A DNA stretch of 32,000 bases, from positions 330,001 through 362,000 of the forward strand of contig NZ_CP013011.1 of NCBI RefSeq assembly GCF_001412615.1, written 5' to 3'. The position numbers and the translations under genes were made by a program. Shown piece by piece: positions 18,002-32,000 of the stretch; within the stretch, counting starts at the first letter, position 1, and the number at the start of each line of letters is the position of its first letter. This DNA comes from Pyrodictium delaneyi. Lineage in GTDB: Archaea > Thermoproteota > Thermoprotei_A > Sulfolobales > Pyrodictiaceae. The notes beneath the pieces are model-generated. The model was given only the letters and a program-made list of their open reading frames with translations, searched no databases and was not told where the DNA came from.

Positions 18002-18502
18002 TTGGCTTCTGCTCATGTTACTGTCACGCTCCCCCGTTCGCTAGCTGAGCGGGCCCGGAGGGAGGCAGAGAAGCTCGGGCTAGGGCTGGAGGAGTACATC
18101 ATAGAGCTGCTAATGGAGGGTATTGACCCGGAGGAGAGGGCTCACGAATATGTTGTTGCTGCAGGGGAGCTGTTGGAGCAGGCCCGGGAGGAGCTAGCTA
18201 AAGGCGATGTCCGGCAGGCTGCGGAGAAGACGTGGGGGGCCGCCGCTCTATCTGTGAAAGCATACGCAGAGTACCGGTATGGGAAGAGGCTTAGGAGTCA
18301 TGGAGAATTATGGGAATATGCGCGTAGGTTGAACCGGGAGCTGGGAGACTGGGTCTACGATGCTTGGACAGCTGCTACTAGTATGCATGTATGCTTCTAC
18401 GAGGGATGGTGTAGCCGAGAAGATGTAGAGAAAGCGCTGGAACGTGTTAGAAAGCTCGTGAGCGGTGTTAAGAGGCTCATCGCTCGTGCGTCTCTGTCCT
18501 AG
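18002..18502 (+). CDS. Ribbon-helix-helix N-terminus fused to a PaREP1-family domain
   Basis: HVTVTLPRSLAERARREAEKLGLGLEEYIIELL looks like a CopG/RHH unit. AAEKTWGAAALSVKAYAE and WVYDAWTAATSMHVCFYEGW match the PaREP1 signature (EK-x-W/Y-x-AA...KA, then W..A...H...F.E). TTG start. Confidence 0.65.
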   Translation: MASAHVTVTLPRSLAERARREAEKLGLGLEEYIIELLMEGIDPEERAHEYVVAAGELLEQAREELAKGDVRQAAEKTWGAAALSVKAYAEYRYGKRLRSHGELWEYARRLNRELGDWVYDAWTAATSMHVCFYEGWCSREDVEKALERVRKLVSGVKRLIARASLS

Positions 18503-19229
18503 CAGTGTACTTGCCCCTGTCTCTCCGGTATATCTTGCTGAGCGCCTCGTATACTAGTGCTGGCTTCTCCTCCCGCTCTAGCTGGCTTAGCTCTATCTCT
18601 ACCTCGACGCGTGTCGGTGGGTGTGTGAGCACGTAGACTCGGTCGGCGTACTCTGCTACCTCGTCTAGGTTGTGATCCACTATCACTACTGTCTTGCCAT
18701 GGCGGTGCGCGATAGCCTCTACTGCTTCTAGGAGGCTGCGGCGCGAGGCGACGTCTAGGCCGGCTAGGGGCTCGTCTAGGAGGAGTATGTCTGGGTCGAG
18801 GACGAGCATCCGGGCTATTGCGGCCTTTCTCGCTGTGCCGCCGCTCACCTCGCCTGGGTACTTGTCGAGATGCTCCGTTATCCCTAGCAGCTCTGCCGCC
18901 CAGGCTACCCGCTCCTCGATTAGCTCCCGGTGTGCGCCGCGGTAGCGGAGTCCAAGGGCTATGTTGTCGCGGAGCCGTTTCCAGGGGAGGAGGAGGTTCT
19001 CCTGGAAGACTAGCAGAGCACGGCCTCTCAGCACTACTGTACCGCGGTCGGGCTCCTCGAGCCCAGCTATGATGCGTAGCAGTGTTGTCTTGCCGCAGCC
19101 GTTAGGCCCTACTATCCCTACTACCTCGGCTTGATGCGCTACGACGGTAACTCCGGCTAGTACTACTCGGTCCCCGTAACTCTTCCAGACATTCCTCGCC
19201 TCTAGCTTCACCTCGGCAGCGCTGCCCAT
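18477..19229 (-). CDS. ABC transporter ATP-binding protein (NitT/TauT nitrate/sulfonate/HMP-type family)
   Basis: Walker A GPNGCGKTT, signature-like VSGGTARKAAIA, Walker B ILLLDEP, H-loop VIVDHN. The internal ATG at 19229 (MGSAAEVKLEARNVW) is preferred and overlaps the permease stop by 22 nt. Confidence 0.85.
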   Translation of the reverse strand: MGSAAEVKLEARNVWKSYGDRVVLAGVTVVAHQAEVVGIVGPNGCGKTTLLRIIAGLEEPDRGTVVLRGRALLVFQENLLLPWKRLRDNIALGLRYRGAHRELIEERVAWAAELLGITEHLDKYPGEVSGGTARKAAIARMLVLDPDILLLDEPLAGLDVASRRSLLEAVEAIAHRHGKTVVIVDHNLDEVAEYADRVYVLTHPPTRVEVEIELSQLEREEKPALVYEALSKIYRRDRGKYTARTETHER

Positions 19230-20083
19230 CGCCGTATCCTCTCCTCCAAGTGCTCCAACACCAACTTGTCGAGAACAATCATCAGTGTTACTAGCACTAA
19301 CCCCCACGCAAAGACGCCACGAGGCTCGGCAAGGCTATAGTAGGTAGCTATCATGTAGCCTATGCCCCCACTGCTCCCGAAGGCCTCGGCTACTACGCTG
19401 ATCCGGAGCGCCGCGCCGAGCGCCGCCCTACCCGCCCCGGCTAGTGCTGGGAGGAGGCTAGGGAGCAGGAAGTCCTTGTAGAGCTTCTTCCTGTCCGCCC
19501 CGAGGAGTATTGCTAGCTCGATTAAACGAGGGTTGGCCGACTCTAGGCCAGATAATAGAGCTGAGAGCATTATCGGGAGAGCTACGAGTGCTGCCACGAG
19601 AACTGGGGGTATGGGACTTAGCACGCCGAACAACATGACTAGAACCAGCGACCAGACGAGGACCGAGACGCTCTGAAGCACAGTGTTTAACGCTCTAACA
19701 GTCTCTTTAGCTAGGGGACCTAGGGTGTAGAGGAGCCCTAGGGCTAAAGCCGTGGTGGCACCTATCAGGAATCCAGCCGCTGTACGGGCGAGCGTAAGAA
19801 CGGTATTCTCAGCTATGGTTAAAGCGCCCTCCTGCGCTAGGAAGGCAAGTGTACCAAGTACCCCTGGAACTTGGCCAGGATAGAGGATGTGGACGAGCTG
19901 CCAGAAAACCGTCAAGAGCGTTGCCGCTGTCAGCCAGCCTGCCAGAACGCTCCTCTTGCCAGAGCTGCTGGCTCGGAGCTTATATAGCCGCCTTCGCGTG
20001 CTAGCTCCCACACTGCTAGGATGTTCTCCACTATCGCTTCTGTGAGTGTTACTGACTCCTCCATTTTCACCCGCTGCCAACAA
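19208..20083 (-). CDS. ABC transporter permease (NitT/TauT family)
   Basis: Six hydrophobic helices and an EAA-type loop (ELAILLGADRKKLYKDFLLPSLLPAL). The start is uncertain: the track start overlaps the upstream SBP gene by ~150 nt, and an internal start near 19950-20010 is possible. Confidence 0.8.
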   Translation of the reverse strand: MLAAGENGGVSNTHRSDSGEHPSSVGASTRRRLYKLRASSSGKRSVLAGWLTAATLLTVFWQLVHILYPGQVPGVLGTLAFLAQEGALTIAENTVLTLARTAAGFLIGATTALALGLLYTLGPLAKETVRALNTVLQSVSVLVWSLVLVMLFGVLSPIPPVLVAALVALPIMLSALLSGLESANPRLIELAILLGADRKKLYKDFLLPSLLPALAGAGRAALGAALRISVVAEAFGSSGGIGYMIATYYSLAEPRGVFAWGLVLVTLMIVLDKLVLEHLEERIRRWAALPR

Positions 20084-20937
20084 AGCTCGGCTGCGCCCTC
20101 GCTTAATCCATACTCCTCCATGAGTATCTGTACTGCCAGGGCTTTATCCCGGTTCCACTGCTGTGCTGCCTCAGCCCGTATCTTCTGTAGTGCTTCAACT
20201 ATCCCGGGATTATCCCTAGCCCAGGAGCCCCGTGCAGCATAGACTATCATTACACCCTTTTCGCCTACATGTCCACTCCACATATCCCAAAGTTCATCGT
20301 AAGTCGCGAGTATCTCGCCACCCTCATCTACCACGAGCTTGGAGACAAAGGGCTCCCATAATACTACGGCATCCACATCACCACGGGCAAAGGCTTGAAC
20401 CAGTTGAGGTGGCGGTGAGTCTACAAGCTGTAGGCTCTTCTCAACGTCGATACCGAAGCCTGCCTTCATATAGGCTTTGAACATTGCATATGTGCCCGTA
20501 GGTTTGAACACGCCAACACGACGCCCCACAAGGTCTTCTATACGGTTTATCCCCGTCTCCGGCTTCGCTACTATTGCCTGGTTCTGGTAAAAGTCAACAG
20601 CTATAATTACCACATCATCTCCGTGTTCGCGGAGCTTTGCGACAAATTCTGCTGGAATAACTGCTACGTCTATATCGCCACGGGCAAGCGCATTAGCTAG
20701 ATCAAGTGTCTTAGTGAAATACTCTACCCGTACATCTAGTCTGTATTTTTGATCGAGTCCGAGCCTAGTTATAACGTCCAGTGTCGAAACGCCGCCACGT
20801 AGAGTACCTATCCTCACCATATTGGTAGTATCTTTACCCCAGTCGGAGTACATCAAAGCAGCTACTATGAACGCTATAGCTACTACAGCAGCTGCTATAG
20901 CGGTACTACGCTCAATTCTAGAACCACCAAGAGCCAT
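19930..20937 (-). CDS. ABC substrate-binding protein, NMT1/THI5-like (NitT/TauT family)
   Basis: N-terminal membrane anchor (STAIAAAVVAIAFIVAALM), then VRIGTLRGGVSTLDVITRLGLDQKY...GDIDVAVIPAEFV...GDVDAVVLWEPF, typical of NMT1/THI5-type periplasmic binding proteins. First gene of an SBP-permease-ATPase operon. Confidence 0.8.
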   Translation of the reverse strand: MALGGSRIERSTAIAAAVVAIAFIVAALMYSDWGKDTTNMVRIGTLRGGVSTLDVITRLGLDQKYRLDVRVEYFTKTLDLANALARGDIDVAVIPAEFVAKLREHGDDVVIIAVDFYQNQAIVAKPETGINRIEDLVGRRVGVFKPTGTYAMFKAYMKAGFGIDVEKSLQLVDSPPPQLVQAFARGDVDAVVLWEPFVSKLVVDEGGEILATYDELWDMWSGHVGEKGVMIVYAARGSWARDNPGIVEALQKIRAEAAQQWNRDKALAVQILMEEYGLSEGAAELCWQRVKMEESVTLTEAIVENILAVWELAREGGYISSEPAALARGAFWQAG

Positions 20938-21130: not shown

Positions 21131-22117
21131 CTAGGCTAGAGTCCTGCGTTCGCTCTTGCCACGGTGTAGCCAGCACATGGCATAGTGATTGTCTCCTACT
21201 TCGAAGTATGGCGGCTCATGTTCATGGCAGACAGGCATTGCTTGTGGGCACCTTGGGGCGAAGCGGCAGCCAGGCGGTGGGCGGCGGAGATCTGGCGGCT
21301 GGCCGGGTATGTAGGCTAGCTTCTCCTTGGGGCCGTGGAGCCTTGGGATGGCGCGTAGGAGTGCACGGGTGTAGGGGTGCTGAGGGTTGTTGTAAATCTG
21401 CTCGCTGGGCCCATACTCTACTATCTTGCCGGCATACATTACCGCTATCTTGTCTGCTAGCTCCGCGATGACGCTGAGATCGTGGCTTATGAATATGATG
21501 CTCATGCCCAACTTGTGTTTTAGGTCTTTTAGCAGGTTTAGTATCTGGGCTTGTATTATTGTGTCAAGTGCTGTAGTGGGCTCGTCTGCTATAAGTATTG
21601 GTGGGTCGAGGGCTAGCGCCATGGCTATTACTACTCTCTGCTTCTGGCCACCGCTAAGCTCGTGTGGGTAACGTTGTGCTACATCCTCGCCGAGCCCAAC
21701 CATCTCTAGTACTTCTATTACCCTGTTGTAGGCTTGCTCCTTGGTCATGCCGCGATGCACTATAAGTGGCTCGGCTATCTGCTCCCAGACCCTGTAGACG
21801 GGGTTCAACGCGTTCATGGCACCTTGGAATATCATGCTTATCTTCTGCCAGCGTATCCTAGACCTTACTTCGTCTTCACTCATACCCACAATATCTTCTC
21901 CATCTATAATTATCTCGCCTTTAGCTATTCTACCCGGTGGCGGGACTAGTCGTAGAAGCGCCCAGGCAAGCGTCGACTTGCCACAACCACTCTCGCCAGC
22001 TACACCGAGAACCTCGCCAGGTTCGAGCGTAAAGCTGACGCCGTCAACAGCACGGACGACGCCACGGAGCGTGTAATAGTGTACATGAAGATCGCGTACC
22101 TCGAGTATAGGCGGCAC
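21131..22117 (-). CDS. Oligopeptide/dipeptide ABC transporter ATP-binding protein (DppD/OppD type)
   Basis: Walker A GESGCGKST, LSGGQKQRVVIAMAL, ILIADEPTTALD, ISHDL, and the Opp-specific C-terminal domain with CRFAPRCPQAMPVCHEHEP. Confidence 0.9.
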   Translation of the reverse strand: MPPILEVRDLHVHYYTLRGVVRAVDGVSFTLEPGEVLGVAGESGCGKSTLAWALLRLVPPPGRIAKGEIIIDGEDIVGMSEDEVRSRIRWQKISMIFQGAMNALNPVYRVWEQIAEPLIVHRGMTKEQAYNRVIEVLEMVGLGEDVAQRYPHELSGGQKQRVVIAMALALDPPILIADEPTTALDTIIQAQILNLLKDLKHKLGMSIIFISHDLSVIAELADKIAVMYAGKIVEYGPSEQIYNNPQHPYTRALLRAIPRLHGPKEKLAYIPGQPPDLRRPPPGCRFAPRCPQAMPVCHEHEPPYFEVGDNHYAMCWLHRGKSERRTLA

Positions 22118-24238: not shown

Positions 24239-25582
24239 GTGCCGAGGCTTGCTGGCGACTGGTTCATAGACTTGTTTACGGGTGAAGCTGAGAAGCTCAT
24301 AGAGTCACTACGGGGCAGGACTACTGCTAGACAAGGGCTCGGAGCCCCTCCCGCCTACTGGTGGATTCCTGGGCTTCCAGAGCCACATAGTAGTGGCGTA
24401 GTTGCTGCTGTTGACGGTGGTGGCGGGTTAGAGCCGCTGGGCGGTTTTGGAGCTGTGTACATTGCACGTGCTTATGGCTACGTGGAGGGCGGGGAGCCGG
24501 AACGGGGGCTTGAGCTACGCTTCTATCCCGTCCGGGAGCTACGGGTCCTGGATGCACTGCGGAGTTGGCTTGAGCACCGGGTGGCTGTGAGGCTCGTTTA
24601 CCGGCTACCGCCGGGTAGCGTACTATTGATGGATGGGAGTCTGTGGGCCACGGTTACTGCTGGACTTACTGCTGTTGCTAAGCTGGCTTCGCGGGGTGTA
24701 CAGAGCCTTGGCTGGGTCTATGCCGCGCTACTCAGCAGCTATATGCTCGCCGAGGTCTCTGAGCTAGTACGGTCTGCTAGGGAGCGGGGCATAACCATAG
24801 CCTATGTGTCGAAGGACCATGGGCTCCGCGCCCTAAAGGAGAAGGTGCTCCTAGAAGCTGTCGCTGAGAGGGTCCGTGCGCTCCAGCCTCTCGTCTCCCG
24901 TGCGCTAGACTACTATCCGCTCGCACTCCGTGAGCAACTCCTTGAAGCCCGGAGACTAGTGCCAAGCGAGCTCCGCGGCATATTCGACGCCGCGCTCGAC
25001 ATGAGCTACCGCGACACAGGGTTCATACAGGATACAACTGGCCCTGGACCTGGGTATAGCTGGCTCCTCCGCCTACCTCTACCCCAGAGGCTAAGCCAAG
25101 TAATCTCCCGCGGAGGATTGAAGGGACTAGTAGAGAGGGCTGCCGCTAAGGCTGAGGCGCTGCTGGCAGAGGAGCCGGAGGCCGAAGAGTTCCGCTCCCT
25201 AGCAGAGAGGCTTCCTCGGCTACTCGACGAGCTACCCGGTAGCCGGATGCTTTACGTGAGGCTCAATAGTAGCGATCACCCCTTGTTGGTAGAGCTGCCA
25301 GGAGAACCTGGCTGCTACTATTCCCCGGGCCGTGTCCTCGAAGAACCGGGCAGCATCATAGAAGAGGTTGTTGCCACCCTGCGGCGCGGGTACGCGGGCC
25401 CAGAATACTACAACATACCCCTAATAGCTGCACACATGAACGCTACTCTTTCCTCGAGTCAGTTAACTAGCTACATGAGGCTTCTCGAACAACTTGCCGC
25501 AGCCCGAGGGCTCCAGCTAAGACTAGCCCGCCGCAGCCTCATTGGCCGCAATCTTCCCCGCAGACGTCGACGACTCCTCTAG
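24239..25582 (+). CDS. nurA: NurA-family 5'-3' nuclease paralog (solitary)
   Basis: The four NurA blocks are recognisable: VAAVDGGGG, VLLMDGSLW, AYVSKDHG and YNIPLIAAHMNATLS. Compare Sulfolobus NurA FVAIDGGS, YILMDGSL, WISKVSRG and YPFPLLKAHMDVRFS, recalled from memory. 447 aa, GTG start. Confidence 0.8.
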   Translation: MPRLAGDWFIDLFTGEAEKLIESLRGRTTARQGLGAPPAYWWIPGLPEPHSSGVVAAVDGGGGLEPLGGFGAVYIARAYGYVEGGEPERGLELRFYPVRELRVLDALRSWLEHRVAVRLVYRLPPGSVLLMDGSLWATVTAGLTAVAKLASRGVQSLGWVYAALLSSYMLAEVSELVRSARERGITIAYVSKDHGLRALKEKVLLEAVAERVRALQPLVSRALDYYPLALREQLLEARRLVPSELRGIFDAALDMSYRDTGFIQDTTGPGPGYSWLLRLPLPQRLSQVISRGGLKGLVERAAAKAEALLAEEPEAEEFRSLAERLPRLLDELPGSRMLYVRLNSSDHPLLVELPGEPGCYYSPGRVLEEPGSIIEEVVATLRRGYAGPEYYNIPLIAAHMNATLSSSQLTSYMRLLEQLAAARGLQLRLARRSLIGRNLPRRRRRLL

Positions 25583-27430: not shown

Positions 27431-29101
27431 CTAGCCTGTGGTCTTGTAGATTATGTAGTACTGTAGCAGCATCGACGGACCAACTTTTACGCCTTCGATG
27501 TTCTTCTGTGTAACCACGTAGAGCTTGCCCTGCAATAGCGGTATGAAGGGTACGTCTTCGGCTAATATCTGCTGGACCTTCTCGTAGAGTTTGGCGCGCT
27601 CCTGCTGGTCAGTGAGTACAGCAGCCTCGTCTAGGAGCTTGTCTACCTCGGGGTTGGTATAGCCCGTGCCGGTCCACTTGTTGGCGCCGCTGTGGAGGAA
27701 TGGTGTCAGGAAGTTGTCGGGGTCTACGTAGTCTGGGTACCAGCCTAGTAGAGAGAGCATCATCTGGCCACTGCGTAGCTGCTTGACGTAGGTCGCCCAC
27801 TCGCTGCTCTTCAGCTCTACCTCTATTACGCCGGTGCGTTCTAGCTGCTCCTTGATGAGCTGTGCTAGGTCTGCCTCGGTGTCGCCATAGTGTGTTGGAG
27901 TGTACCAAAGCTCTACCTTGAGCTTATTGTTTTCGTCGTATCCAGCCTGCTTGAGTAATTGCTTAGCGAGCTCTATGTTGCCGTCACCGTACTTCTCCTT
28001 GAAGACGTCTATGTGGCTCCAGAGCCCCTTAGGCACCATGCTGTAGAGAGGCTCCATGGTCCCCATGAATACTACATCTGCTAGCTCAGTGCGATCGATG
28101 GCTGCCGCTATAGCCTGACGTACTAGCTTCTCGCTGGTAGGCTCCATCTTTGTGTTGACTACTATGTAGCGTATGAAGCTACCAGGGACCTCTATTACCT
28201 TGAACCTGTTGTCTGCCTCTAGCTCGCGGTAGTCGTTGGGCCGTAGCGTCCTCCACGCTATGTCTATTTCGCCGTTCTCGAGGGCTAGGCGGAGGGTTGT
28301 GGCATCCTTGTAGAAGCGTATTATCACTGTGGGTGTCTTTGGCTTCTCGCCGTAGTAGTAGGGATTGGCCTCAAGGATTATGTACTCGTCGCGCTTAAAT
28401 TCCTTGATGCAGTATGGCCCGGCGCCGCCCCAGGTGGCGTCGCTCACTATCTGGTCTACGGGGTACTCGGGTGATACTGGGAAGTATGGCGGCGTGGCTA
28501 CGACTGCTAGGAAGAAGCCGACAGGCTTCTTGAGCGTGAACTTGACTGTGTAGTCGTCAAGGGCCTCGACCTTCTCAACGAACTCTGTTACTAGCCAGGA
28601 GGGGTCACCTTGTAGCTTCATCACCCTTTCTATGCTGCGGACCACGTCCTGGGCCTTCACTGGGGTGCCGTCACAGAACTTTGCATCCTTGCGTAGGTGA
28701 AATATCCATACTTTGCCGTTCTCCTTGACTTCCCAGCTCTCGGCTAGGGCTGGTACTATCTTGTCGGTGCCAGGCTCATACTTTACTAGACCCTCCATTA
28801 TGTTGTTGAGAACCTCCCATGTGAAGAAGTCGTAGGCGTTAGCGGGGTCTAGGTCTGTAACCTTGTCCGTTGTGCCTATGACTATCCTCTCGGCTAGTTG
28901 CGCGGTAGGTGCTGTAGTCTCTGCAGCCTGTGTAGTTGTCTCCGTCGCTGCCGGTCCGGTCTCCGCGGGCGCTGTAGTCTCTGCTACAGTCGTCTCCGGG
29001 GCTTCTGTGGGCGCAGGTTGTCCACCGCGCAGGACTAAGGCTGCGCCTACAACGATGAGGAGTAGGACTAGACCAGCTATTATGAGCGTTGTCTTCTGCA
29101 T
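27431..29101 (-). CDS. ABC transporter substrate-binding protein, family 5 (oligopeptide/dipeptide/nickel, OppA/DppA type)
   Basis: N-terminal anchor TLIIAGLVLLLIVVGAAL and a Thr/Ala/Glu/Pro linker (APETTVAETTAPAETGPAATETTTQAAETTAPTAQ). A typical family-5 fold sequence follows (VIGTTDKVTDLDPANAYD..., WYPDYVDPDNFL). Confidence 0.9.
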   Translation of the reverse strand: MQKTTLIIAGLVLLLIVVGAALVLRGGQPAPTEAPETTVAETTAPAETGPAATETTTQAAETTAPTAQLAERIVIGTTDKVTDLDPANAYDFFTWEVLNNIMEGLVKYEPGTDKIVPALAESWEVKENGKVWIFHLRKDAKFCDGTPVKAQDVVRSIERVMKLQGDPSWLVTEFVEKVEALDDYTVKFTLKKPVGFFLAVVATPPYFPVSPEYPVDQIVSDATWGGAGPYCIKEFKRDEYIILEANPYYYGEKPKTPTVIIRFYKDATTLRLALENGEIDIAWRTLRPNDYRELEADNRFKVIEVPGSFIRYIVVNTKMEPTSEKLVRQAIAAAIDRTELADVVFMGTMEPLYSMVPKGLWSHIDVFKEKYGDGNIELAKQLLKQAGYDENNKLKVELWYTPTHYGDTEADLAQLIKEQLERTGVIEVELKSSEWATYVKQLRSGQMMLSLLGWYPDYVDPDNFLTPFLHSGANKWTGTGYTNPEVDKLLDEAAVLTDQQERAKLYEKVQQILAEDVPFIPLLQGKLYVVTQKNIEGVKVGPSMLLQYYIIYKTTG

Positions 29102-29148: not shown

Positions 29149-31254
29149 ATGGTTACACTCGGGGATATGAAAGCCTTATCCTCAACTGGCCGGACGGGCC
29201 AGCTTCAAGGCTACGAGGATATAGTGCTGCGCCCTCACGATCATGTCCCGGGGGTGCCAGGCCTGGTGTTTGAGCAGCAAAAACCCATACCGGTCATGGT
29301 TGTGCTCCGTGGCCGTGTTGTTGTTGCCCGTGTGCCGCGTGTCGCCTCCCGCTGGCTCGGCGGTCTCCTGGTGGAGCTTGAAACCGGGGTACAAGTACAT
29401 CTTCTCATGCCTGGCGCTATTGCCCGGTGGCTGCATAGAGGGGAGAGGGTAGAGGTAAGGTTCCTCGAGGAGCCCGAACGTGTCAATGGAGTCTATGTCG
29501 CGCCGAGGGATTCCTATGAGCTGTGGAGGATCTGGGGTAGCGAGCAGAGAGAGGAGCGGGTCAAAGTCTGGCCTCCGTGGAGGCGCGAAGCTCGGCTAGA
29601 GCGGGAGAGTTTCCTCGGGGAGAGGGTCTACGAGTACCGCGTTGTAGCCCGCGAGGCCGTCACGGAGGATGATTTTCGAGAGATAGTAGGTCTCGAGCAA
29701 TATCATTATGCTAGCAGGGAGGAGGTCGTAGCGATATGGAGATGCCCTGTCTGCGGCAACTACGCTGAGGCTAACGTGCAGCCCACCTGCCCCCGTTGCG
29801 GTGTGCCGATGAAGCTCCAGGAGATACGTGGAAGCCTCCCTTCGAGCAGGTTCATGGTCCTCGAGCTGGCCTCCAGGGAGCCCTACGAGCCAAGGATAGT
29901 GGCCTATGTCCGGGTTGACACACCTATACCGTTGATGCACCGCCGCATAGTCAAGGAGGATGGAGGTGTAGAGATAGAACGGATGATAAGGGAGCGGGTG
30001 TTCCCGAAGGACTGGTTCCACCCCACATTCTGGCCCCTTGCCTACACGCGACGGGCTGAGCTGCGGAAACGGTTCCAGGAGCTAGCCGAGCTCTATGGCT
30101 CCCGCCGCATCGCTCGTGCCGTCGTGGGCGAGGAGATAGCTGAGGAGGCTCTCCGCCGCGCAAACACCGCTGCCGCGCGTATAGCACGTGTTGTGGTCCA
30201 CCCCGACTACCGTGGCGACGGGCTCGGCGTCCTAGCAGTGAAGATGGCGCTTGAATGGATACGGGAGCGCCGCATCCCAGAGATGAAGAGGAGGAAACAT
30301 GTAGTCGAGACCATAGCCCAGATGGCGCGGTTCAACCCGTTCTTCGAGAGGGCCGGGTTCCGCTACATGTGGGACACGGCTAGCGGCCGCCCTGTGCTAA
30401 TGTACCCGCTCACCGAGGAAGCTCGGAAGAGGATAGAGGAGTTCCTTGAGAAGGACCCCTATGCCCGCCGCCACGGTGGCAAACTTTTCCGTCCACGCTA
30501 TGGCGGTGTTGAGCCTCTTTCAGGGCCGATAAAGCTAGTCAACCTCACCAAGATCTACCGTAGCGAGCTAGACGTCTCCAGACTCCCACCCGAACTACAA
30601 GACGTATTGCGCGCCTTTGGCGCCGAGAGGAGGCGAGTAGAACGCTACGTGCTGCGCAACACGAGCTTCGAGATAAAGCCAGGCGAGGTAGTCGCAGTGG
30701 TAGGCGCTAGCGGCGCAGGAAAGACCACCCTGTTACGCATGATTATAGGCGCTGCGCTGGGCGCCAGGGACGAGAACTACCAGCCGAGCCAGGGCAGGGT
30801 AGAGGTGCCGAACAACGTTAAGCTCGCCGCGTTACTGCCCGGGGAGATGGAACCGGTGTTCGGCAGCGAGACTCTGCTAGAACACGTAGCCCGTAAGATA
30901 GGAGACCCAGCCGCGGCTGTAGAGATACTCAACGCCGTCGGGCTGAGCGATGCAATATTCTACCGCGCCCGGTTCGACGAGCTCTCCACTGGCCAGAAAG
31001 AGCGGGCCCGGCTAGCAAGCCTCCTCGCAGAGAGGCCCAACCTACTGGTCATAGACGAGTTTACTGCCCACCTGGATCGTCTGACAGCGCAGAGGGTTGC
31101 CCGTAAGCTGAGCAGCCTAGCACGTCGCGTAGGCATAACCCTGGTGGTCTCCACTAACCGGCCAGAAGTGCTCCAGGCGCTAGCACCGGACAAGGTGGTG
31201 CTCGTCGGCTACGGCACGGCAGTAGTAGCGGAAGAGAGGACTGGGGCCCGGTAG
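29149..31254 (+). CDS. Multidomain fusion: N-terminal domain of unknown function, zinc ribbon, GNAT acetyltransferase and a single ABC-type ATPase domain (COG2401-like)
   Basis: Zinc ribbon CPVCGNYAEANVQPTCPRCG (aa 199-217). GNAT motif A RIARVVVHPDYRGDGLGVLAV (aa ~345-365). ABC Walker A GASGAGKTT (aa 519-527), signature LSTGQKERARLA, and Walker B LLVIDEF. The usual H-loop His position reads VVSTNRPE. The start could alternatively be the ATG at 29167. Confidence 0.8.
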   Translation: MVTLGDMKALSSTGRTGQLQGYEDIVLRPHDHVPGVPGLVFEQQKPIPVMVVLRGRVVVARVPRVASRWLGGLLVELETGVQVHLLMPGAIARWLHRGERVEVRFLEEPERVNGVYVAPRDSYELWRIWGSEQREERVKVWPPWRREARLERESFLGERVYEYRVVAREAVTEDDFREIVGLEQYHYASREEVVAIWRCPVCGNYAEANVQPTCPRCGVPMKLQEIRGSLPSSRFMVLELASREPYEPRIVAYVRVDTPIPLMHRRIVKEDGGVEIERMIRERVFPKDWFHPTFWPLAYTRRAELRKRFQELAELYGSRRIARAVVGEEIAEEALRRANTAAARIARVVVHPDYRGDGLGVLAVKMALEWIRERRIPEMKRRKHVVETIAQMARFNPFFERAGFRYMWDTASGRPVLMYPLTEEARKRIEEFLEKDPYARRHGGKLFRPRYGGVEPLSGPIKLVNLTKIYRSELDVSRLPPELQDVLRAFGAERRRVERYVLRNTSFEIKPGEVVAVVGASGAGKTTLLRMIIGAALGARDENYQPSQGRVEVPNNVKLAALLPGEMEPVFGSETLLEHVARKIGDPAAAVEILNAVGLSDAIFYRARFDELSTGQKERARLASLLAERPNLLVIDEFTAHLDRLTAQRVARKLSSLARRVGITLVVSTNRPEVLQALAPDKVVLVGYGTAVVAEERTGAR

Positions 31255-31354
31255 AGCCTTCACCCCCTCCACCTTATCGCGTCTGTCCTGGGGGCTTGTC
31301 CTGGCGGAGAAGCATAGCCCGGAGAGGCTCATAGTAGTAACCGGCGTCTCCGGG

Positions 31355-32000
31355 GTGGAGCTAGCCCCGCTGTTAAAGCTGGCAGAGGAGCTTGGAGCTG
31401 CTACTGCGAAGTACGAGGAGTTCGTAGAGGAGGAGTTCAAGGCACCCATCTACCACGTAGCAGAGCTACTATTGGTTTACTATAGGCGCACTAGCGAACG
31501 GTTCGAGAAGGCCTTCAAGAAGATGCTAGACAGTCTCTCCGACAGCAAGGCCGCCGTGGTAGCAGCGCATGCTGCCTACTACCGGCGCAGCAACATCGTG
31601 GCTAGCCCACTCGCAGGGTTCATACACCGGCTAGCAGCCAGGGGCGAGGCCTCAGTAGCCATAGTGGACTACGTTGACGACTATTACCACATACTATACC
31701 GGCTCGCCGACCGGGTAGCCCGGGGCGAGACGCCAGAAGTGGCCGGGTTCCAGGTTCTAGACCCGGCTGGCCTCCTATACTGGAGGAGCACACACCACAG
31801 TATAGCCCAGCTCGCCGCGATACACGGGGCCGAGTTCTACGTCTACGCCTCCAAGCATAGTCGTGAGGGGCACCGCCGACTCCTCGCTATGCTCCTCGGC
31901 CAGGAGCCTGAAGAGGGTGGCAGCTTCCACACAGTCTACGTCTCCCACCCCATAACCAGGGTGAGAGCCCGGGCAATACGGGAGGGCAAGCCGCTAGACC
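31355..32000 (+). CDS. Hypothetical protein, 3'-truncated by the window end; not in the supplied ORF track; start uncertain
   Basis: My own translation of frame 2 is open from 31229 to the window end. It reads ...ERLIVVTGVSG-VELAPLLKLAEELGAATAKYEEFVEEEFKAPIYHVAELLLVYYRR...FHTVYVSHPITRVRARAIREGKPLD. The first canonical start is the GTG at 31355 and the next is the ATG at 31523. Confidence 0.5.
   Translation, partial: MELAPLLKLAEELGAATAKYEEFVEEEFKAPIYHVAELLLVYYRRTSERFEKAFKKMLDSLSDSKAAVVAAHAAYYRRSNIVASPLAGFIHRLAARGEASVAIVDYVDDYYHILYRLADRVARGETPEVAGFQVLDPAGLLYWRSTHHSIAQLAAIHGAEFYVYASKHSREGHRRLLAMLLGQEPEEGGSFHTVYVSHPITRVRARAIREGKPLD

Follow-up and report, generated by a model that had tools for sequence, protein, structure and literature searches.

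A gene that fuses a GNAT acyltransferase domain to a single ATP-binding cassette (ABC) ATPase domain was found on the forward strand of a 32,000-nucleotide stretch of the Pyrodictium delaneyi chromosome (NZ_CP013011.1, positions 330,001–362,000). This whole stretch is called the window below, and positions are counted from its first letter. We see a slightly better than even chance (probability about 0.55) that the encoded GNAT-ABC protein is a soluble, ATP-gated acyltransferase of nucleic-acid bases, a reading that spans both DNA and RNA. It builds on the domain architecture of the protein, the conservation of its motifs, its homology to a family found in defence islands, and the gene contexts in which it and its relatives occur.

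Domain architecture and conservation

The gene lies within a single open frame of 701 codons (29149–31254, + strand), whose residue numbers are used here unless stated otherwise; conservation was counted over 74 aligned family members. The GNAT domain (residues ~156–440; 29614–30468, +) scores 25.6 bits against Acetyltransf_1 of Pfam, above the cut-off of 20.7, and both this profile and Acetyltransf_7 match 74/74 members. This bears out the assignment of the central region to the GNAT fold in a preliminary description of the window that was made from the letters alone. The acyl-CoA pyrophosphate-binding loop noticed in that description, GNAT motif A, reads RIARVVVHPDYRGDGLG (residues 344–360; 30178–30228, +), with R355, G358, and G360 invariant in all 74 members. 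The ABC-type ATPase domain (residues ~461–701; 30529–31251, +), identified from ABC_tran and fold matches, also recurs throughout the family; ABC_tran covers residues 502–640 (E 2.7e-19, 70.6 bits against a cut-off of 25) and matches 74/74 members. Its Walker A motif GASGAGKT (30703–30726, +; K525 in 74/74), ABC signature LSTGQ (30982–30996, +; S613 and Q616 invariant), and Walker B motif LLVIDEF with catalytic Glu637 (D636 and E637 invariant), the last followed by the D-loop AHLD (31042–31077, +, with Walker B at 31042–31062), were located much as first described, and all of them, like GNAT motif A, are invariant in 74/74 members. ATP is sandwiched between the Walker A and signature motifs of opposite subunits in all ABC proteins. 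Because the signature motif is invariant and, like the D-loop, functions only in trans, an ATP-sandwich dimer appears to be under selection.

Two loops of the ATPase domain depart from the usual pattern. When the protein is aligned with two transporter ATPases from this window, the Q-loop position LLPGEMEP (30832–30855, +) is seen to carry Pro564 in place of Gln, followed by a conserved Gly-Glu; the Pro is found in 73/74 members and E566 in 69/74. At the H-loop position VVSTNRPE (31144–31167, +), the family alignment confirms the Asn for His reported earlier (Asn670), with Asn in 67/74 members and His in seven, among them the divergent proteins P0124–P0127. A Q-loop Gln and an H-loop His are usual in ABC ATPases, but they do not define the superfamily.

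An AlphaFold2 model of the full-length protein, built from the 74-sequence alignment, has a mean predicted local distance difference test (pLDDT) of 91.0 and a predicted TM-score (pTM) of 0.87. In this model the GNAT fold begins near residue 158, with strand b1 (YRVVAREA) and helix a1, which ends in the invariant LEQYHYAS, and a zinc ribbon and a two-helix hairpin form insertions within the domain. The ribbon CPVC-x11-CPRC (29743–29799, +; C199, C202, C214, C217) lies between helix a1 and strand b2. It had been described as a separate CxxC-x12-CxxC module; a zinc ribbon is indeed present, with a spacing of x11 and a place inside the GNAT domain. C199 and C214 are invariant and C202 is kept in 71/74 members, while the fourth ligand is His in 32, Cys in 22, and Asp in 19 of the 74, and all three residues are able to bind metal. 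The second insertion consists of two long helices (residues ~302–337; 30052–30159, +; helices 263–277 and 280–298 in the 662-residue numbering of the model), and motif A sits at the b4-a3 loop, after strand 303–311 and before helix 320–335 of the model.

The N-terminal domain (residues ~49–154; 29293–29610, +) is a beta-barrel. Modelled alone, its ~105 residues reach a pLDDT of 90.4 and show the succession b1-b2-b3, short helix, b4-b5, with extra hairpins. Nearly all of its structural neighbours are OB folds, including RPA, SSB, Teb1, PriB, S1, cold-shock, and IF1 proteins, the anticodon-binding domain of AspRS, and TiaS, and most of these neighbours bind single-stranded DNA or RNA. We call the domain OB-like because these matches have Z 5.5–6.9, where values below 7 lie in the noise range of the aligner, and Foldseek E-values of 3.9e-3 or higher; the modelled fold is weak evidence for nucleic-acid binding. 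By phmmer, only proteins of this family gave matches to the domain. The preliminary description had seen here an unknown N-domain of 190 amino acids. An N-terminal domain is present, with a shorter extent of ~105 residues and an OB-like modelled fold, and the GNAT domain takes over from about residue 158.

Fold searches with the full-length model were dominated by the ABC domain, which matches the nucleotide-binding domains of transporters and of soluble proteins alike (VIA-align Z 20–22). For the GNAT region, a structural search of the ESM Atlas with residues 155–470 gave a best match to a GNAT cluster with a TM-score of 0.59 by query and 0.79 by target over 199 residues, both sides being predicted models. 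Small or plain GNAT clusters came first (TM 0.54–0.59), followed by TmcA/NAT10 (TM 0.47–0.50) and DruA/Mom (TM 0.47 by query, 0.73 by target), so that the named multi-domain neighbours were the TmcA/NAT10 clusters and DruA/Mom. We treat the TmcA-like and Mom-like affinities as leads, not membership. In PDB sequence comparisons, the GNAT core comes closest to small N-acetyltransferases of proteins or drugs (E 0.03–0.1).

Translation probably starts at GTG 29266, giving a protein of 662 amino acids that ends at a TAG stop (29266–31254, +), since the 39 leading codons are unconserved, even in congeners 90–91% identical, and both the homologs and the 662-residue gene call of this genome begin where V40 lies. 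Another possible start is ATG 29296. The 701-codon frame reported earlier is therefore intact as an open frame, with the start moved inwards; its first part (29149–29265, +) is an in-frame upstream extension that is probably untranslated and shares its 5' region and promoter space with a divergent solute-binding protein (SBP) gene. The spacer to that gene measures ~164 bp with the GTG 29266 start versus 47 bp for the raw frame. A promoter and terminator scan, scored against bacterial consensus sequences, was uninformative at this archaeal locus. The encoded protein is basic (isoelectric point 9.7), which we take as a hint of nucleic-acid binding, and shows no hydrophobic or transmembrane segment (maximum Kyte-Doolittle 19-residue mean 1.3); it was correctly described as having neither a membrane domain nor a permease gene among its neighbours. 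It is encoded by a single-copy gene in the 2.02-Mb genome, in which all other matches are to the ABC part alone. Its G+C content of ~0.60 is similar to that of neighbouring genes, and the locus shows no sign of a genomic island.

Family distribution, defence islands and ASCH genes

The fusion is conserved, at 56–90% identity overall, in >80 hyperthermophile genomes. Its retention at >80 loci excludes an artefactual, frameshifted fusion, which the preliminary description had named as a possible refutation. A search of 5.8 billion proteins returned full-length homologs of 620–696 amino acids with 64–90% identity, and an exhaustive HMMER search of 1.84 billion representatives with query residues 40–480 returned about ten full-length clusters at 50% identity. 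Judged by sequence comparison, the GNAT-ABC family is real and narrow. Full-length matches occur in 24 of 401 sampled Thermoproteota genomes, and eighty further loci were found in Pyrodictiaceae, Desulfurococcales, Acidilobaceae, Thermoproteales, Thermofilaceae, a few Thermococcus metagenome-assembled genomes, and other metagenome-assembled genomes from hot environments. The nearest named relatives belong to Pyrodictiaceae, Pyrolobus, and Aeropyrum. Some copies are disrupted: the gene is split or bears stops in the congener G022 (C1:342900-344211) and in the same-order G198 (C1:735910-737396), and the matches in G340 and G376 each contain one in-frame stop codon.

Database names for these homologs vary. 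NCBI calls them ‘GNAT family N-acetyltransferase’ or ‘ABC transporter-related protein’, and JGI names five proteins that are 67–80% identical (P0005, P0006, P0055, P0059, P0106) ‘ABC-type ATPase with predicted acetyltransferase domain’, which we take to be the name of COG2401. The earlier assignment to COG2401 agrees with the names of close homologs. A literature search for COG2401 and for an archaeal ABC-type ATPase with an acetyltransferase domain found nothing. The protein nonetheless belongs to a family that is already catalogued and whose function has been predicted in print: GNAT+ABC proteins are predicted to be acyl modifiers of a DNA base in Iyer et al. (Viruses 2021, PMC7824862), which cites Iyer, Zhang, Burroughs, and Aravind (NAR 2013).

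The GNAT core was found with an ABC domain in both orders, with (F/Y)HY, RIARVVVHP(D/E)(Y/F)RG.GLG, and M(A/S)RY(N/H)PFFE.AG shared among them. Relatives with the same domain order form a sister family, whose profile, built from 27 relatives, aligns with the archaeal profile in hhalign at 100% probability and E 1.3e-78 over columns 34–651, starting inside the N-domain (where per-column confidence is low at first) and reaching almost to the end of the ABC domain. The sister family shares GNAT motif A and has neither zinc ribbon nor helical insert. We located it at 64 metagenomic loci encoding proteins of ~600–670 amino acids (L141–L209, e.g., L174, L180, L156, L197). Twenty-four of the 64 lie in DISARM-like islands with DrmE_C (5e-51), a ~1000-residue DrmA-like DEAD/Helicase_C protein, MZB/DUF1998, and PLD, and 18 adjoin a HerA-like ATPase accompanied by unknown and PLD/ParE-like genes; of the remaining 22 loci, 16 are shorter than 5.1 kb. 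DNA-methyltransferase signatures were nearly absent from the sister islands in a crude motif scan within ±6 kb. The HerA-like-island partners c7 and c8 have no sequence relatives in the PDB, and c8 is not NurA-like.

Relatives with the swapped order ABC→GNAT, of ~485 amino acids, match PHROGs 11143 and 886. In Thermoproteota head-tailed proviruses their genes directly follow the TerL gene and overlap its stop, with a major capsid gene nearby (L137:5696-8759, L140:4671-7681, L139:5975-9219). For the Pyrodictium protein itself, PADLOC returned generic ABC matches only (mad3, mad8, AriA). The window holds no DrmA/B/C/E or HerA-like genes, and no defence-island partner gene is conserved beside the GNAT-ABC gene across the 81 archaeal loci whose open reading frames (ORFs) were clustered to define the neighbourhood; scattered helicase- or HerA-like BLAST matches occur in five of these.

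A further link to nucleic acid is given by ASCH domains. The family member P0127 (765 amino acids) has an ASCH domain fused at its C-terminus (28.9 bits, cut-off 21.2), and ASCH or ASCH-like genes of 134–152 codons, in two subtypes, lie directly upstream of the GNAT-ABC gene at L018, L020, L021, L023, L028, L096, L097, L107, L108, and L112 (e.g., L096:9568-9969, L097:3323-3724, L107:7742-8197, L108:1179-1610, L112:9479-9922), that is, at at least 10 loci in roughly four lineages. An ASCH-like profile matches 22 of 24 genomes with the enzyme versus 99 of 377 others, numbers to be read with the far wider spread of the ASCH-like family and the non-independence of related genomes in mind; it has no match in G022, whose enzyme gene is broken. 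No ASCH gene stands next to the GNAT-ABC gene in this window, and ASCH or ASCH-like genes occur elsewhere in the genome (G000 1703085, 148896). None adjoins or is fused to the sampled metagenomic sister-family proteins, as judged with a narrow hidden Markov model (HMM) and with hhalign, run both for the entire profile and for the C-terminal extension found in the 800–900-residue forms. The E. coli protein YqfB deacetylates N4-acetylcytidine. According to a 2026 bioRxiv preprint, free N4-acetylcytidine is deacetylated by the ASCH protein EOLA1, and GNAT-EVE operons, predicted to act on modified nucleic acid or bases, nearly always include an ASCH protein (Bell et al., PMC7641849). We take the co-occurrence with ASCH as support for action on nucleic acid, not as proof.

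Proposed function and competing explanations

We hypothesize that the GNAT-ABC protein works as an ATP-driven clamp; that it dimerises, acts on nucleic acid, and has the acyl donor and target atom given below is inferred from the features above. The protein consists of four modules: an OB-like beta-barrel, a GNAT domain with an inserted zinc ribbon, a linker, and one ABC-type ATPase domain. Two copies would bind ATP between the Walker A of one subunit and the LSTGQ of the other to give a closed homodimeric clamp, which would set the OB domain, the zinc ribbon, and the GNAT active site onto nucleic acid. The GNAT domain could then transfer an acyl group to the exocyclic amine of a base, with acetyl donated by acetyl-CoA as the simplest case. 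Our best guess for the target atom is cytosine N4, its acetylation being the simplest guess because of the TmcA-like leads and the ASCH link. ATP hydrolysis, presumably slow with no Q-loop Gln and with Asn for the H-loop His, would reset the clamp. The sister proteins seem to provide the marking function in methylase-poor DISARM-like and HerA-like islands and in tailed archaeal viruses. The Pyrodictium gene is a stand-alone, vertically inherited chromosomal copy.

The preliminary description had proposed an ATP-gated acetyltransferase acting on RNA or protein. An ATP-gated acyltransferase of a macromolecule fits our results, but the islands of the relatives, the viral copies, the ASCH genes, and the published prediction speak for a base of nucleic acid as the target, DNA being no less likely than RNA; a protein target is less likely. 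We slightly favour DNA over RNA because of the defence-island and terminase contexts of the homologs and because the prediction in print concerns DNA, while the archaeal branch speaks for RNA by its stable synteny and by a degree of conservation like that of housekeeping genes.

Several observations weigh against this reading. The OB-fold matches of the N-domain are in the range of noise, the resemblances to TmcA and Mom are TM-scores of ~0.5 or sub-threshold HMM matches, the scan for methyltransferases was crude, and the ASCH-like family is far wider than the enzyme. Neighbours of the gene differ between lineages, and in the window no ASCH, nuclease, helicase, or other nucleic-acid gene stands in an operon with it. 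Very high conservation and stable housekeeping synteny are also unlike typical defence genes, and for this reason the archaeal function may have diverged from that of the defence-island relatives.

Part of the same evidence could be read as that of an RNA enzyme, a TmcA/Nat10-like cytidine acetyltransferase of tRNA or rRNA in which an ABC ATPase replaces the helicase motor. The TmcA/NAT10 clusters near the GNAT region in the ESM Atlas, the weak matches to the TmcA-type profile PF13718, and the ASCH linkage are all compatible with it, the OB-like domain resembles tRNA and RNA binders as much as binders of single-stranded DNA, and 57–90% identity across orders is typical of translation-apparatus enzymes. 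We regard this as possible, though doubtful: the genome already has three TmcA/Nat10-type genes, full-length homologs occur in DNA-directed defence islands and relatives beside viral terminases, the published prediction names DNA, and across the 81 loci the gene lacks any conserved neighbour of the RNA-modification kind (THUMP, PUA, Tan1-like). Those homolog contexts, together with the ASCH fusion and neighbourhood, also indicate nucleic acid over a protein substrate. A protein N-acetyltransferase, for instance of chromatin or ribosomal proteins, whose ABC domain serves as an ATP-dependent switch or substrate clamp, is in our judgement quite unlikely; no protein partner gene is conserved, and the named multi-domain structural neighbours are nucleic-acid-modifying GNATs. 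Such an enzyme would agree with the best PDB matches of the GNAT core and with the habit of most GNATs with generic Acetyltransf_1/7 matches, which act on proteins or small molecules, and OB-like barrels and zinc ribbons can make protein contacts.

The islands and viruses that harbour the homologs also raise the prospect of a stand-alone conflict gene, a defence or toxin protein and no housekeeping modifier, in which an ABC sensor activates the GNAT effector upon infection to acetylate, for example, aminoacyl-tRNA or invader nucleic acid. ABC ATPases serve as sensors in PARIS- and Gabija-type systems (PMC12839542), and the patchy distribution (24/401 Thermoproteota genomes), the disrupted copies in G022 and G198, and the single in-frame stops in G340 and G376 would suit such a role. 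Yet the gene is single-copy with the G+C of its surroundings, its synteny is stable and housekeeping-like at 13 Desulfurococcaceae loci (AGOG, creatininase-family, Maf) and 6 Pyrodictiaceae loci, identity of 57–90% across families is unlike that of fast-evolving defence genes, defence-island partners are not conserved in the 81 archaeal loci beyond the stray helicase- or HerA-like ORFs in five, and PADLOC gave only the generic ABC matches; we think this very unlikely. Closest to exclusion is the ATPase subunit of an ABC transporter, e.g., for the adjacent SBP, with GNAT as a regulatory extension. Some databases call homologs ‘ABC transporter ATP-binding protein’, the divergent neighbour is a family-5 SBP gene, and the ABC domain has a fold of transporter-like class (Z ~22 to many importer nucleotide-binding domains), but soluble ABC proteins (MCR component A2, PhnK, ABCE1, ABCF) fit the fold equally. 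Against this reading, no permease gene is adjacent, the SBP adjacency is unconserved, the NMT1-type transporter of the window (18477–20937) has its own ATPase, and the Q-loop Gln, which contacts permease coupling helices, is Pro in 73/74 members.

In a more specific and unlikely version of the nucleic-acid base acyltransferase, the hyperthermophile enzyme would be a domesticated, constitutive writer of an acyl mark of the N4-acetylcytosine type on genomic DNA or RNA, an orphan counterpart of the methylase-less DISARM-like marking module, with the ASCH protein as reader or eraser. If so, domesticated writer and ASCH protein would form a nucleic-acid modification pathway so far undescribed in archaea. 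The GNAT-ABC family is widespread, and a single computational prediction, of DNA-base acylation, has been in print since 2013. Acylation of nucleic acid, if true, would add a new ATP-dependent nucleic-acid acyltransferase and would explain self-marking in methylase-poor DISARM-like and HerA-like islands and the role of the terminase-adjacent copies on viral DNA. If the target is a protein or a small molecule, the published prediction would need revision. The archaeal branch offers a convenient entry for biochemistry and structure, being unusually highly conserved, single-copy, and partner-free, in organisms whose proteins are thermostable.

Gene neighbourhood and comparison with known systems

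Synteny around the gene is lineage-specific only across the 81 loci. Directly upstream in thirteen Desulfurococcaceae loci is a creatininase-family gene, and most of these loci also have AGOG upstream and Maf with a radical-SAM gene downstream; flavin reductase lies downstream in twelve loci. A permease gene adjoins the GNAT-ABC gene neither here nor at any of the 81 related loci, in line with the earlier proposal that it is not a transporter component and not embedded in transporter operons. The divergent neighbour in the window encodes a family-5 extracellular SBP (27431–29101, − strand; SBP_bac_5 E 1.8e-99), which we rejected as a partner and consider no part of the system; its adjacency is unconserved in relatives, and the −1 gene at other Pyrodictiaceae loci is PterinBD-DUF4346.

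The downstream ORF (31229–32000, +; L004:6230-7546) runs off the window and encodes ~407–438 amino acids in the genome, with a C-terminus weakly resembling nucleoside 2-deoxyribosyltransferase (E 1.2e-3). What looks like its first strand and glycine loop (ERLIVVTGVSG) precedes its first ATG/GTG/TTG at 31355. It had been singled out as a possible conserved neighbour, a suggestion that fails, as it is found at the +1 position in only 6/81 loci, all Pyrodictiaceae. It was rejected as a partner because elsewhere it is unlinked and also occurs in families in which no GNAT-ABC gene was found. An AMP-forming acetyl-CoA synthetase gene (L004:9960-11966), 3.7 kb beyond the GNAT-ABC gene, is unconserved at other loci.

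Elsewhere in the window, a complete NMT1-type ABC importer comprises a binding protein (19930–20937), a permease (19208–20083), and its own ATPase (18477–19307), and is adjoined by a lone OppF-type ATPase (21131–22117). A NurA-domain paralog of 447 amino acids (24239–25582) has no HerA, Mre11, or Rad50 gene nearby. At two other archaeal loci, L038 and L074, the GNAT-ABC gene is closely followed by a HerA-like gene; going by gene sizes, our guess is that the latter belongs to a HerA-Mre11-Rad50 repair operon.

Comparison with TmcA/Nat10, from which the preliminary description had argued, yields an analogy only. Both proteins fuse an NTPase module to a GNAT domain, and their GNAT parts have a weak structural and HMM affinity. 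PF13718 (GNAT_acetyltr_2) scores 13.3–15.2 bits on the GNAT-ABC protein against a cut-off of 24.6 and gives weak matches in 53/74 members (best E 0.0057); in this genome it otherwise matches only three TmcA/Nat10 paralogs. PF05127 (RecD-like helicase) and PF08351 (TmcA_N) appeared neither in the best 25 of 40 Pfam families at E ≤ 1 nor in the 25 families with the most frequent matches across the 74 members. With neither of these two domains present and PF13718 below threshold, the protein falls outside TmcA/Nat10. TmcA/Nat10 combines TmcA_N, a RecD-like helicase, GNAT_acetyltr_2, and a tRNA-binding domain, with a helicase motor and a different domain order, whereas the GNAT-ABC protein has an ABC dimerising clamp as its motor and neither TmcA_N nor a tRNA-binding domain. 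The genome has unusually many bona fide TmcA/Nat10-type paralogs, in frames of 892, 754, and 721 amino acids (GNAT_acetyltr_2 matches at G000:C1:1689955-1690458, 1220299-1220754, and 1953571-1954005).

Mom of phage Mu and DruA form a family of GNAT-fold enzymes that acylate DNA bases in virus–host conflict, and they appear among the ESM Atlas neighbours at the TM-scores given above. They have no ABC ATPase, OB domain, or zinc ribbon, and no significant sequence match links them to the GNAT-ABC protein, for which PADLOC gave no DruA match at E ≤ 0.01. Soluble ABC ATPases (ABCE1, ABCF/EttA, MCR component A2, PhnK/PhnL) share a transporter-like nucleotide-binding domain without a membrane partner (Z 19–22; PDB sequence match to EttA, E 5e-21). 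In these proteins two nucleotide-binding domains occur in tandem or are supplied by heterodimer partners, and both the Q-loop Gln and the H-loop His are retained; the GNAT-ABC protein has a single such domain, in which both residues are replaced.

Closest of all are the COG2401-type homologs of Pyrolobus fumarii 1A and Aeropyrum pernix K1, with 71–73% full-length identity and the same domain order and motifs; nothing essential separates them from the protein described here, whose raw ORF has a probably spurious 39-codon upstream extension. Compared with the GNAT + ABC DNA-modification module predicted earlier (PMC7824862), the archaeal branch has zinc-ribbon and helical insertions in its GNAT domain and is stand-alone and chromosomal, with housekeeping-like conservation and without restriction or defence partners. 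The coupling of GNAT to ABC is common to both, and the homologs occur within DISARM-like and HerA-like islands and beside viral terminases, as expected for a DNA-marking enzyme.

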